Positions 46,476 to 49,435 of a stretch of DNA of 64,000 nucleotides are shown in pieces. Where the stretch lies: assembly GCF_022846255.1 (NCBI RefSeq), contig NZ_AP025682.1. The stretch is one strand, 5' to 3'. The position numbers and the translations under genes are program-made. The DNA is from Escherichia coli. GTDB lineage: Bacteria > Pseudomonadota > Gammaproteobacteria > Enterobacterales > Enterobacteriaceae. Within the stretch, counting starts at the first letter, position 1; every line of letters starts with the position of its first letter. The notes beneath the pieces are model-generated. The model was not told the DNA's origin. It ran no database searches and worked only from the letters and a program-made list of their open reading frames with translations.

Positions 46476-47087
46476 AAAGCAAACCGCCAGTAGATAAACC
46501 TGCCATTAAAGCTGTACCCTCAAGTTGATGCTGAAACGAAATAGGCATCTTGGTTGTGGTGTTTGTAACAAACTATCAGATACAAAAATATGCTCAATTT
46601 GTGACATCAGTAACAAAACGCGTTTTGTTATGTGGATTGCTTGTTTTTTGATCTGGTATAACAGGTATAAAGGTATACAGAAAAGCAAAGAAATACTGCA
46701 AAGGAAAACAGCTATAACGTAAGCTAACGTAATAACCTCTCAGTCTTTCCTCATTTGACTATGGGAGTTTTATTCAACCTGAACGGACTACGAAAATGAG
46801 CACAATGAATAAGTCAATTTTTGAAGCAGGGTTGAACTGTGCCAGTGGTGGAATATCTGGCGAACATTTTTTTTGATGGTGACCCAAAACTGAAGGTGGG
46901 TATCAGTTTTATCTTTCATAGAGTGAAATATGTTAAGAAGAAATGGAGGAAAAGATTGTACTGATTAGGTATTGATAACAATTAATAGTACTGGCGTATT
47001 TGAAGACAATATAATTATTGCTGGATATTGTTGAGGCTCCCTAATATTTACTTTAAGAGCTGTATTAGAATAACACAGGAAACAAAT

Positions 47088-48305
47088 ATGGCAACAGTAT
47101 GGTATAAACAAGTTAATCCACCACAACGGAAAGCTCTTTTTTCTGCATGGCTTGGATACGTATTTGATGGCTTTGATTTTATGATGATATTTTACATTCT
47201 TCATATTATAAAAGCAGATCTTGGCATTACGGATATTCAGGCCACTTTAATAGGGACAGTGGCCTTCATAGCCAGACCTATTGGGGGCGGTTTTTTTGGT
47301 GCCATGGCTGATAAATATGGGCGTAAGCCAATGATGATGTGGGCAATTATCATTTACTCAGTCGGAACAGGCCTTAGCGGTATTGCTACAAACTTATATA
47401 TGCTCGCAGTTTGCCGTTTTATTGTTGGCTTAGGGATGTCTGGTGAATATGCATGTGCTTCAACTTATGCGGTAGAAAGTTGGCCTAAAAATCTTCAATC
47501 TAAAGCTAGTGCTTTTTTGGTAAGTGGTTTTTCTGTTGGAAATATTATTGCGGCACAAATAATCCCTCAGTTTGCTGAAGTATATGGATGGAGAAACTCT
47601 TTTTTTATAGGCCTGTTACCAGTTTTACTAGTTCTTTGGATCAGAAAAAGTGCTCCAGAAAGTCAGGAGTGGATTGAAGATAAATATAAGGATAAATCAA
47701 CATTTTTGTCTGTCTTCAGAAAACCACATCTTTCAATCTCTATGATCGTTTTCCTCGTCTGTTTTTGTCTATTTGGTGCAAACTGGCCGATAAACGGACT
47801 ACTTCCTTCCTACCTAGCAGATAATGGAGTTAATACAGTGGTTATTTCAACTCTGATGACAATAGCAGGTTTAGGAACACTGACAGGTACAATATTTTTT
47901 GGTTTTGTTGGTGATAAGATTGGTGTAAAAAAAGCCTTTGTAGTCGGTCTAATAACTTCATTTATTTTCCTTTGTCCTCTTTTTTTTATTTCTGTGAAAA
48001 ACTCTTCTCTTATAGGATTATGTCTCTTTGGATTAATGTTTACAAATTTAGGTATTGCAGGGTTGGTTCCAAAATTTATATATGATTACTTTCCAACAAA
48101 ATTAAGAGGATTAGGGACCGGTCTTATTTATAACTTAGGGGCAACTGGAGGAATGGCCGCACCTGTATTAGCTACATACATTTCAGGATATTATGGCTTA
48201 GGTGTTTCATTATTCATTGTTACGGTTGCATTCTCTGCCTTATTAATTTTGTTAGTTGGTTTTGATATTCCAGGTAAAATTTATAAACTGTCCGTGGCTA
48301 AATAA
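47088..48305 (+). CDS. MFS-superfamily transporter (substrate unknown)
   Basis: ORF track 47028..48305; 12-TM profile, MFS motif (GAMADKYGRKP), RBS AGGAAA before ATG at 47088; gene is conspicuously AT-rich. Confidence 0.75.
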   Translation: MATVWYKQVNPPQRKALFSAWLGYVFDGFDFMMIFYILHIIKADLGITDIQATLIGTVAFIARPIGGGFFGAMADKYGRKPMMMWAIIIYSVGTGLSGIATNLYMLAVCRFIVGLGMSGEYACASTYAVESWPKNLQSKASAFLVSGFSVGNIIAAQIIPQFAEVYGWRNSFFIGLLPVLLVLWIRKSAPESQEWIEDKYKDKSTFLSVFRKPHLSISMIVFLVCFCLFGANWPINGLLPSYLADNGVNTVVISTLMTIAGLGTLTGTIFFGFVGDKIGVKKAFVVGLITSFIFLCPLFFISVKNSSLIGLCLFGLMFTNLGIAGLVPKFIYDYFPTKLRGLGTGLIYNLGATGGMAAPVLATYISGYYGLGVSLFIVTVAFSALLILLVGFDIPGKIYKLSVAK

Positions 48306-48316
48306 TTGGAGGCTTT

Positions 48317-49435
48317 ATGATTAATTATGGCGTTGTTGGTGTTGGATACTTTGGCGCTGAATTAGCTCGTTTTATGAATATGCATGATAATGCAAAAATC
48401 ACATGTGTATACGATCCTGAAAATGGAGAAAATATTGCCCGTGAATTGCAGTGTATCAATATGTCAAGCTTGGATGCTTTAGTCTCAAGTAAATTAGTCG
48501 ATTGCGTGATCGTAGCCACCCCAAATTATCTGCATAAAGATCCAGTAATTAAAGCAGCAAAGAATAAGAAGCATGTTTTTTGTGAAAAACCAATTGCATT
48601 AAGTTATGAAGATTGTGTGGATATGGTCAAAGCGTGTAAAGAAGCTGGTGTGACCTTTATGGCTGGGCATATTATGAATTTTTTCAACGGGGTTCAATAT
48701 GCACGGAAGTTAATTAAAGAAGGTGTTATCGGCGAAATATTATCATGTCATACCAAGAGAAATGGCTGGGAAAACAAACAAGAGAGACTTTCCTGGAAAA
48801 AGATGAAAGAACAATCTGGTGGACATCTATATCATCATATACATGAGTTAGATTGTGTTCAGCATTTACTTGGAGAAATACCAGAGACGGTTACTATGAT
48901 TGGTGGAAATTTGGCCCATTCTGGTCCAGGATTTGGCAATGAAGATGATATGTTATTTATGACATTGGAATTCCCGTCAGGAAAACTAGCAACCTTAGAG
49001 TGGGGGAGTGCATTTAACTGGCCGGAACATTATGTCATCATCAATGGAACTAAAGGCTCTATTAAAATTGATATGCAAGAAACAGCAGGGTCACTTAGGA
49101 TTGGCGGTCAGACAAAGCATTTTTTGGTCCATGAAACACAAGAAGAAGATGATGATCGTCGGAAAGGCAATATGACCTCAGAAATGGATGGCGCTATAGC
49201 ATATGGTCATCCTGGAAAAAAAACACCATTATGGCTTGCCAGTTTAATAAGAAAGGAGACGTTATTCCTCCATAATATCCTCAGTGGTGCAAAACCTGAA
49301 GAAGATTATATTGACCTTCTCAATGGTGAGGCGGCCATGTCGGCGATTGCTACTGCTGATGCTGCCACTCTTTCAAGATCGCAGGACAGGAAAGTGAAAA
49401 TCAGTGAGATCATTAAACATACATCAGTAATGTAA
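48317..49435 (+). CDS. Gfo/Idh/MocA-family NAD(P)-dependent oxidoreductase
   Basis: 372-aa ORF with N-terminal Rossmann fold (MINYGVVGVGYFGAELARF) and conserved EKP motif (HVFCEKPIALS); RBS GGAGG; 11 bp after the MFS gene. Confidence 0.75.
   Translation: MINYGVVGVGYFGAELARFMNMHDNAKITCVYDPENGENIARELQCINMSSLDALVSSKLVDCVIVATPNYLHKDPVIKAAKNKKHVFCEKPIALSYEDCVDMVKACKEAGVTFMAGHIMNFFNGVQYARKLIKEGVIGEILSCHTKRNGWENKQERLSWKKMKEQSGGHLYHHIHELDCVQHLLGEIPETVTMIGGNLAHSGPGFGNEDDMLFMTLEFPSGKLATLEWGSAFNWPEHYVIINGTKGSIKIDMQETAGSLRIGGQTKHFLVHETQEEDDDRRKGNMTSEMDGAIAYGHPGKKTPLWLASLIRKETLFLHNILSGAKPEEDYIDLLNGEAAMSAIATADAATLSRSQDRKVKISEIIKHTSVM

Follow-up and report, generated by a model that had tools for sequence, protein, structure and literature searches.

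In the 64,000-nucleotide stretch of Escherichia coli DNA analysed here (the window), two AT-rich genes for an MFS transporter and a Gfo/Idh/MocA oxidoreductase lie side by side between insertion sequences, raising the question of which compound they handle and what controls them. A preliminary description of the locus had read it as an uptake-and-oxidise module for a sugar-like compound, the substrate of which could not be read from the sequence. The pair is almost certainly nanXY (yjhBC), an accessory operon and the third of the NanR sialoregulon in E. coli, and the same DNA bears the RefSeq labels nanX and 'nanY: 2,7-anhydro-N-acetylneuraminate hydratase'. With K-12 YjhB and YjhC as 99.5%-identical counterparts, the substrate is readable from the sequence after all. 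It would be 2,7-anhydro-Neu5Ac (PMC7535918, PMC7315737), with the enzyme a redox-neutral hydratase and not a dehydrogenase. The nanXY pair has already been characterised, and the genes themselves offer nothing new; the substrate, chemistry and regulation given below are carried over from the literature on these 99.5%-identical proteins.

The transporter and the enzyme

47088-48305, + strand: nanX (yjhB), predicted MFS proton symporter for 2,7-anhydro-Neu5Ac, 405 aa (from NF008963 and K-12 identity)
48317-49435, + strand: nanY (yjhC), predicted NAD+-dependent 2,7-anhydro-N-acetylneuraminate hydratase of the NanOx family, 372 aa (from YjhC identity)

Both genes are intact and co-oriented, each with its own ribosome-binding site, as described at the outset. 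The 11-nt gap between them (TTGGAGGCTTT) holds GGAGG, and AGGA stands 7 nt ahead of the nanX ATG at 47088, which we take as the start codon; the program-made list of open reading frames begins this frame at an upstream TTG (47028). Every NanX gene is reported to be linked to NanOx/NanY (PMC8461474), and the linkage is present here, with nanY beginning 11 nt past the nanX stop codon.

The nanX product contains MFS_1/Sugar_tr domains (Pfam) and scores 785.5 bits against the NCBIfam equivalog NF008963 (cut-off 637). It is identical to NanX of strain 200177 and matches K-12 YjhB at 403 of 405 positions, the 12 nucleotide differences between the genes leading to two amino acid changes (A4V and F88I). 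The next-best NCBIfam matches are to models of NanT, the E. coli Neu5Ac:H+ MFS symporter of the ST1 family, which belongs to the same transporter family and shares 35% identity with NanX (PMC7535918). The scores of the NanT-family models NF003024 and TIGR00891 fall under their cut-offs (380 bits where the cut-off of the NanT-family model is 604), and by model scores the protein belongs with the NanX clade, not with that of NanT. According to the literature, NanT has 14 helices, whereas NanX has 12 (PMC8461474) and does not carry Neu5Ac. The match of the 405-residue protein to the 497-position NanT model is split in two stretches, which fits 12 helices without a central insertion; a crude hydropathy count was unreliable. 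EcNanX is reported to be specific for 2,7-anhydro-Neu5Ac (2,7-AN; bioRxiv 10.1101/2024.01.17.576040).

A homology search for the nearest characterised Gfo/Idh/MocA enzyme, as suggested in the preliminary description, leads to the crystallised K-12 YjhC (PDB 6O15), with which NanY shares 370 of 372 residues over its full length (E75D and C323S; 8 nucleotide differences). NanY consists of the N- and C-terminal GFO_IDH_MocA domains (PF01408, residues 2-118; PF02894, residues 130-362), and its N-terminus (MINYGVVGVGYFG) contains the GxGxxG Rossmann motif. Ruminococcus gnavus NanOx (PDB 6Z3B, 6Z3C) is of the same family and chemistry, and NanY aligns with it without gaps over 368 residues (531 bits). 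At an offset of two, NanY residues Lys91, Lys161, His173 and His176 correspond to Lys93, Lys163, His175 and His178 of RgNanOx, which are the EKP lysine, the second lysine and the HxxH motif that replaces the usual Asp (PMC7535918). The two systems differ in that R. gnavus uses the SatXYZ (SAT2) ABC system for transport, whereas the nanX product is an MFS protein, and in that the R. gnavus cluster includes a gene for the substrate-producing IT-sialidase; E. coli, without a sialidase, scavenges what others release.

K-12 YjhC turns 2,7-anhydro-Neu5Ac into Neu5Ac with regeneration of NAD+, and keto intermediates were seen; the genes are under the control of NanR (PMC7315737). Deletion mutants of yjhB and yjhC do not grow on 2,7-anhydro-Neu5Ac, and an enzyme assay has also been described (PMC7535918). 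At 99.5% identity, NanY probably carries out the same conversion, again with NAD+ regenerated; the net reaction would be hydration to Neu5Ac without net oxidation, at odds with a module that oxidises its substrate. Placing the two genes in K-12, which had been put forward as a test, is moot since K-12 MG1655 already has the pair at 98.9% DNA identity.

The regulatory region and its likeness to nanCMS

46600-46615, + strand: putative CRP-like site, TGTGACATCAGTAACA, one mismatch to TGTGA-N6-TCACA
46655-46677, + strand: NanR operator, GGTATAACAGGTATAAAGGTATA, three GGTATA repeats, exact match
46678-47087, + strand: AT-rich leader of ~410 nt from the operator to the nanX start, putative 5′ UTR

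The interval first singled out (46476-49435) begins at the first base past the right inverted repeat of an IS630-family element and not at a gene start; 46476-47087 is 612 bp of non-coding DNA at 35% GC that comprises promoter, operator and leader. The NanR operator, absent from the preliminary description, assigns the two genes to the sialic acid regulon. It is the sole match in the window at two or fewer mismatches, with none in 100 shuffles, and is identical to the sequence upstream of K-12 nanX; the nanC operator is identical except for its last four bases. The (GGTATA)3 definition and the mechanism of NanR at its operator have been reported (PMC8012715). Here the operator overlaps a putative -10 hexamer, TATAAC (46657-46662).

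A scan for consensus sigma-70 sites returned no more than in shuffled sequences, with the + strand ahead of nanX giving none at all; the promoter is thus placed by the operator together with the CRP-like site and nanC homology. Transcription would start near 46669, and the transcript leader would be ~420 nt long. With 2.15 matches to the CRP consensus expected by chance and 4 found, such matches are not rare, and the weight of the CRP-like site comes from its position, ~61 nt upstream of the putative start, and from its place inside an 83-bp block shared with nanC; CRP may act at this promoter. An Rfam scan of 46300-50100 for riboswitches and small RNAs found no family that matches the leader and only two chance-level matches. 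In K-12, H-NS binds yjhB promoter DNA (PMC9546599), and by analogy it may silence this AT-rich DNA in the present strain.

The 83-bp block (46598-46680) resembles the nanCMS promoter-operator of E. coli, at ~420-470 bp upstream of nanC, in 69 of 83 positions (83%). The likeness covers the CRP-like site and the NanR operator and drops to background on either side, and the genes controlled by the two regions are unrelated. One tentative reading, which we think somewhat less probable than its alternatives taken together, is promoter capture: an 83-bp cassette carrying the CRP-like site, the -10 and the NanR operator, set on otherwise unrelated DNA, may have wired a foreign AT-rich pair into the sialic acid regulon, the module having since moved between tRNA-linked islands, so that pathogens could feed on anhydro-sialic acid freed by commensals such as R. 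gnavus. Regulation of yjhBC and mapping of the operon are reportedly the subject of Kalivoda et al. 2013 (PMC3807447), the primary paper, in which the nanC resemblance may already be described.

Island setting, distribution and origin

45318-46475, - strand: IS630-family insertion sequence, the left bracket, outside the operon, with 20-nt inverted repeats at 45318-45337 and 46456-46475
49445-49468, + strand: hairpin resembling an intrinsic terminator, with CUUUUAU behind it, 10 nt past the nanY stop
49478-49602, + strand: ythA small-protein gene, here a frameshifted pseudogene (1-nt deletion relative to K-12 ythA)
49916-50572, - strand: right bracket, made up of the remnant of an IS3-type end (49916-50006) and an IS4 transposase gene that is truncated (50012-50572)

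The operon closes with the terminator-like hairpin, which has a predicted stability of -15.7 kcal/mol (z = -4.55; 0 of 200 shuffles equally stable) and is the same in K-12 and strain 200177. In the K-12 counterpart, which lies on the leuX-associated KpLE2 island, gene order, 11-nt spacer, NanR operator, terminator and downstream ythA are all shared, with 98.4% DNA identity over window positions 46547-49903. The two loci differ in site, the K-12 pair lying in the leuX island beside fec and the present one in the pheU island next to the afa-8 adhesin operon. They also differ upstream, where IS630 and a breakpoint at 46523 stand here and an IS4 is inserted at ~46547-46555 in K-12. Finally, K-12 ythA is not frameshifted, unlike ythA here; strains 200177 and MS15236 have a ythA annotated as frameshifted too. 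Islands that hold the module are the leuX island in K-12, the pheU island beside afa-8 here and a cdi-linked island in MS15236.

Insertion sequences do bracket the pair, as first described. The open reading frame of the left element (45341-46372, 343 aa) encodes DDE_3 and HTH domains and is annotated in strain 200177 as an IS630 family transposase; farther left lie an IS110 fragment and an IS3-family element. On the right, the IS3 remnant is 84.6% identical to the IS3 end in L001, and MS15236 is annotated at the matching positions with 'integrase core domain... incomplete' and 'IS4 family transposase, incomplete'. A composite transposon was considered and rejected, because the flanking elements are of different families and form no matching pair. 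Of 5426 complete genomes, only one has the junction of IS630 with the nanX region. Position 46523 does not mark a general left end of the module: in K-12 and MS15236 the shared sequence continues for another 607 bp beyond it, which makes 46523 a lineage-specific breakpoint. The neighbourhood is degraded, with ythA and cdiB frameshifted, cdiA deleted and IS fragments present.

The markedly AT-rich composition first noticed is borne out by GC content, overall and at third codon positions. The genes have 36.4% (nanX) and 38.8% (nanY) GC and the interval 37.1%, against 48.9% for the window, of which only 0.5% of 2960-bp stretches are lower; GC at third codon positions is 0.25 for nanX and 0.32 for nanY, against 0.577 ± 0.054 for 19 long open reading frames in the core part of the window. 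Nor is the pair a common core locus. It is carried by 1133 of 5426 complete E. coli genomes (about one in five), K-12 included, and has been reported in ~15% of isolates (PMC10088187), in line with the earlier view of an accessory, horizontally acquired locus.

Acquisition from a low-GC donor as a unit had also been proposed. A low-GC origin is supported, the nearest relatives of NanY outside E. coli all being from low-GC mucosal bacteria and at most 67% identical; that the two genes came as a unit is conjecture. The nearest gammaproteobacterial loci, those of the Haemophilus parainfluenzae group (~40% GC), hold homologues of NanY (66%) and NanX (51% over 397 aa) in divergent genes ~2 kb apart, in contrast to the co-oriented nanXY with its 11-nt spacer, and are far too dissimilar to represent a recent donor. 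Across 100,044 species-representative genomes no match rose above 67% identity, and no relative outside E. coli exceeded 67% for NanY or 51% for NanX. In a plasmid collection, the search found only relatives at 57-65% (Ligilactobacillus, Salmonella, Enterococcus) and one E. coli chromosome filed as a plasmid.

A model for function and its alternatives

The K-12 orthologues suggest a model for how the module would work. Gut and mucosal bacteria such as R. gnavus, or Streptococcus pneumoniae through NanB, would free 2,7-anhydro-Neu5Ac from host sialoglycans by means of intramolecular trans-sialidases, and NanX, a 12-helix MFS paralogue of NanT, would import it. NanY would bind NAD+ and transiently oxidise C4 to a keto intermediate, then add water to open the anhydro bridge and re-reduce C4, giving Neu5Ac in a reaction that is redox-neutral overall. 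The product would be catabolised by the core nanATEK pathway, presumably encoded elsewhere in the genome; nanR and nanATEK lie outside the 64-kb window and are present in >99% of E. coli isolates (PMC10088187). NanR on the (GGTATA)3 operator over the -10 would repress transcription, and Neu5Ac would lift the repression.

That the pair is instead a generic module for sugar uptake and NAD(P)+-dependent oxidation, its second gene encoding a dehydrogenase of the inositol or glucose-fructose oxidoreductase type, is extremely improbable. NanY does have the fold and Pfam domains of Gfo/Idh/MocA dehydrogenases and weak similarity to models of IolG, xylose dehydrogenase and levoglucosan dehydrogenase, but its scores against the dehydrogenase equivalogs fall far under the cut-offs (IolG, 116.7 against 355 bits; LevoglcsnDh, 77.9 against 650; XylDh, 74 against 350). 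The HxxH motif standing for the usual Asp of the catalytic triad, the NanR operator upstream of the pair and the 99.5% identity of NanY to YjhC, which regenerates NAD+ and yields Neu5Ac, all argue against such a module. A broader role, in which NanX would also import 2-deoxy-2,3-didehydro-Neu5Ac (Neu5Ac2en; 2,3-EN) and the module would salvage both dehydrated sialic acids, is less remote, though we consider it unlikely. YjhC converts 2,7-AN and 2,3-EN alike to Neu5Ac, and loss of yjhB in a nanR deletion background ended growth on both compounds (PMC7315737); however, in a strain devoid of sialic acid transporters, EcNanX and Salmonella STM1132 gave growth only on 2,7-AN, and uptake of Neu5Ac2en needed NanT (bioRxiv 10.1101/2024.01.17.576040).

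The operon might also be a silent passenger in this strain, repressed by H-NS and NanR amid decaying IS and cdi remnants and without input to fitness, which we judge to be quite improbable. Wild-type K-12 failed to grow on 2,7-AN alone, growth requiring deletion of nanR, and cells grown in LB had no YjhC activity (PMC7315737), findings that accord with silence, as do the binding of H-NS to the yjhB promoter and the degraded surroundings (ythA, cdiA, cdiB and IS fragments). Against this, the reading frames, operator, ribosome-binding sites and terminator are all intact, and most nucleotide changes relative to K-12 are synonymous; BW25113 grew with 2,7-anhydro-Neu5Ac as sole carbon source (PMC7535918), and a yjhB null is defective in mouse gut colonisation (PMC9546599).

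On the preferred reading, that of a sialoregulon operon for 2,7-anhydro-Neu5Ac, nanXY would be a cross-feeding module on a pheU pathogenicity-type island beside the afa-8 adhesin operon. Carriage in about one-fifth of genomes, the poor gut colonisation of the yjhB mutant and the afa-8 neighbourhood together make it plausible that nanXY is a colonisation factor that travels with virulence genes.

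Identity and composition of the gene pair

On the strength of the protein identities, the RefSeq labels, an operator and a terminator hairpin, the AT-rich gene pair is identified as a complete nanXY (yjhBC) operon.

47088–48305, + strand: nanX, 405 aa from ATG, with AGGA ahead of the ATG
48317–49435, + strand: nanY, 372 aa
10 nt past the nanY stop codon: strong hairpin followed by a T-run (folding −15.7 kcal/mol, z = −4.55)

The mechanical ORF list opens nanX at an upstream TTG (47028); the ATG at 47088 is used here. The preliminary description had the genes co-oriented, 11 bp apart, equipped with their own ribosome-binding sites and markedly AT-rich, and all of this holds: the 11-nt spacer, TTGGAGGCTTT, contains GGAGG, the interval 46476–49435 has a GC content of 37.1% against 48.9% for the window (essentially its lowest 2960-bp stretch), and GC3 is 0.25 for nanX and 0.32 for nanY, whereas 19 long ORFs from the window's core portion give 0.577 ± 0.054. 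The interval does enclose the gene pair, but 46476 is not a gene start; that position directly follows an IS630-family element, being the first base past its right inverted repeat, and the first 612 bp of the interval are non-coding regulatory and leader DNA.

NanY is identical to Escherichia coli K-12 YjhC (PDB 6O15) at 370 of 372 positions over its full length, and NanX to K-12 YjhB at 403 of 405. Pfam assigns the nanX product to MFS_1/Sugar_tr and the nanY product to the Gfo/Idh/MocA N- and C-terminal domains. NanX passes the NCBIfam equivalog NF008963 (785.5 bits, cut-off 637) and falls below threshold for the NanT-family models. RefSeq labels on matching DNA from K-12 and other strains read 'nanX: MFS transporter' and 'nanY: 2,7-anhydro-N-acetylneuraminate hydratase'. 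NanY aligns without gaps to Ruminococcus gnavus NanOx (PDB 6Z3B, 6Z3C; 531 bits), whose catalytic residues Lys93, Lys163, His175, and His178 (PMC7535918) are retained here as Lys91, Lys161, His173, and His176; the two changes relative to K-12, E75D and C323S, lie away from them.

Substrate and reaction

The substrate had been thought unreadable from the sequence; homology to the 99.5%-identical YjhB and YjhC gives 2,7-anhydro-Neu5Ac. E. coli BW25113 grows on this dehydrated sialic acid, deletion of yjhC or yjhB abolishes that growth and spares growth on Neu5Ac, and purified YjhC interconverts the two compounds (Bell et al., PMC7535918). 2,7-Anhydro-Neu5Ac is the sole cargo reported for NanX (preprint 10.1101/2024.01.17.576040), and Neu5Ac2en is a further YjhC substrate (PMC7315737). 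The YjhC reaction requires NAD+ and regenerates it, passing through keto (presumably 4-keto) intermediates (Kentache et al., PMC7315737). Because NAD+ is regenerated, the net reaction of NanY would be a hydration and not an oxidation, so that the proposed 'uptake-and-oxidise' module is wrong in mechanism; the Neu5Ac product would then enter the core nanATEK catabolic pathway.

Island context, distribution and origin

In this genome nanXY rides on a pathogenicity-type island at pheU, as pheU, an integrase and an afa-8-type afimbrial adhesin operon precede it.

35386–35461: tRNA-Phe (pheU), end of the core genes in the window
35596–36924: tyrosine integrase
37219–37731: AfaE-8/BmaE-like protein, afa-8-type operon
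38289–38708: afaD, same operon
38724–41312: usher, same operon
41480–42247: chaperone, same operon
45318–46475: IS630-family element with 20-nt inverted repeats, left of nanXY
49478–49602: ythA (small protein), downstream of nanY
49916–50572: IS3-end remnant and truncated IS4 transposase, right of nanXY
50666–50986: small ORF at the cdiI position, without a match in the Pfam scan
51180–51641: cdiA C-terminal remnant

The order after tRNA-Phe is integrase, adhesin operon, IS3/IS110/IS630, nanXY, a frameshifted ythA, IS remnants and a decayed contact-dependent inhibition locus, cdiBAI; the afa-8-type region (35386–42934, including pheU and the integrase) also holds regulators. A 1-nt deletion relative to K-12 frameshifts ythA here and likewise in the comparison strains 200177 and MS15236. 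K-12 has this module in its leuX island, adjoining fec, and in MS15236 it adjoins an intact cdiBAI, whereas the locus here (50666–53000) has lost ∼9.5 kb of cdiA relative to MS15236, with a junction near 51585, and cdiB is broken into several ORFs. Farther right (53400–64000), by the annotation of strain FEX669, lie dGTPase-family, H-NS-family paralogue, ProQ/FinO-family and YagK/YfjJ-domain genes, and two more low-GC patches occur at 56.4–59.4 kb (38% GC) and 62–64 kb (36–40% GC).

IS elements do bracket the pair, as first described, but they belong to different families, which rules out a composite transposon. The IS630–nanX junction (46400–46640) recurs in 1 of 5426 complete E. coli genomes, that of strain 200177 (human stool, Mali), and the 47 bp at 46476–46522 are common only to that strain and the window. 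Position 46523 is a lineage-specific breakpoint and not a module boundary, since K-12 and MS15236 have 607 bp more in common leftward of it. The pair was suspected not to be core, and it is indeed accessory: at least 80% of the interval 46476–49435 is present in 1133 of the 5426 complete genomes (21%), and a population study found nanXY in ∼15% of isolates (PMC10088187). K-12 MG1655 carries the interval at 98.9% identity, so the suggested test of adding both genes to K-12 is moot.

Among 100,044 species-representative genomes, no NanY relative exceeds 67% identity. The top matches come from Gemelliphila, Streptococcus, Enterococcus and the Haemophilus parainfluenzae group, nearly all at loci of 30–45% GC; relatives on plasmids are 57–65% identical. 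Only the Haemophilus-group loci (seven compared; NanY homologue 66% identical) also hold a NanX homologue (51%), which is divergent from nanY and ∼2 kb away, in contrast to the co-oriented operon of E. coli. A low-GC, mucosa-associated source of nanXY is plausible from these comparisons.

The putative nanX promoter region

46600–46615: CRP-like site, one mismatch to consensus
46655–46677: NanR operator GGTATAACAGGTATAAAGGTATA, exact match, ∼430 bp upstream of nanX
46657–46662: TATAAC hexamer

Allowing up to two mismatches, the window contains no other match to the operator, and 100 shuffles gave none. It is the (GGTATA)3 operator, which binds three NanR dimers and defines the three sialoregulon operons, including yjhBC (PMC8012715), whose expression NanR represses (PMC7315737); H-NS binds the K-12 yjhB promoter DNA (PMC9546599). 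By alignment, the operator is the third element of a block, 46598–46680, that also encloses the CRP-like site and the hexamer and is 83% identical (69/83) to DNA ∼420–470 bp upstream of nanC (at ∼2500–2580 in the comparison loci L004 and L005). Likeness between the two promoters drops to background on either side; the block looks like a regulatory cassette, shared or copied, set in AT-rich DNA that is otherwise unrelated. Placing CRP at about −61.5 would put the transcription start near 46669, with the operator lying over both the −10 element and the start site, and would make the AT-rich leader ∼420 nt long. An Rfam scan of the leader matched no family, and a generic promoter scan upstream of nanX added nothing.

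The nanXY operon is well characterized and annotated; the residual interest lies in the promoter block common to nanX and nanC, and in a cross-feeding module carried on a pheU island beside adhesin genes.
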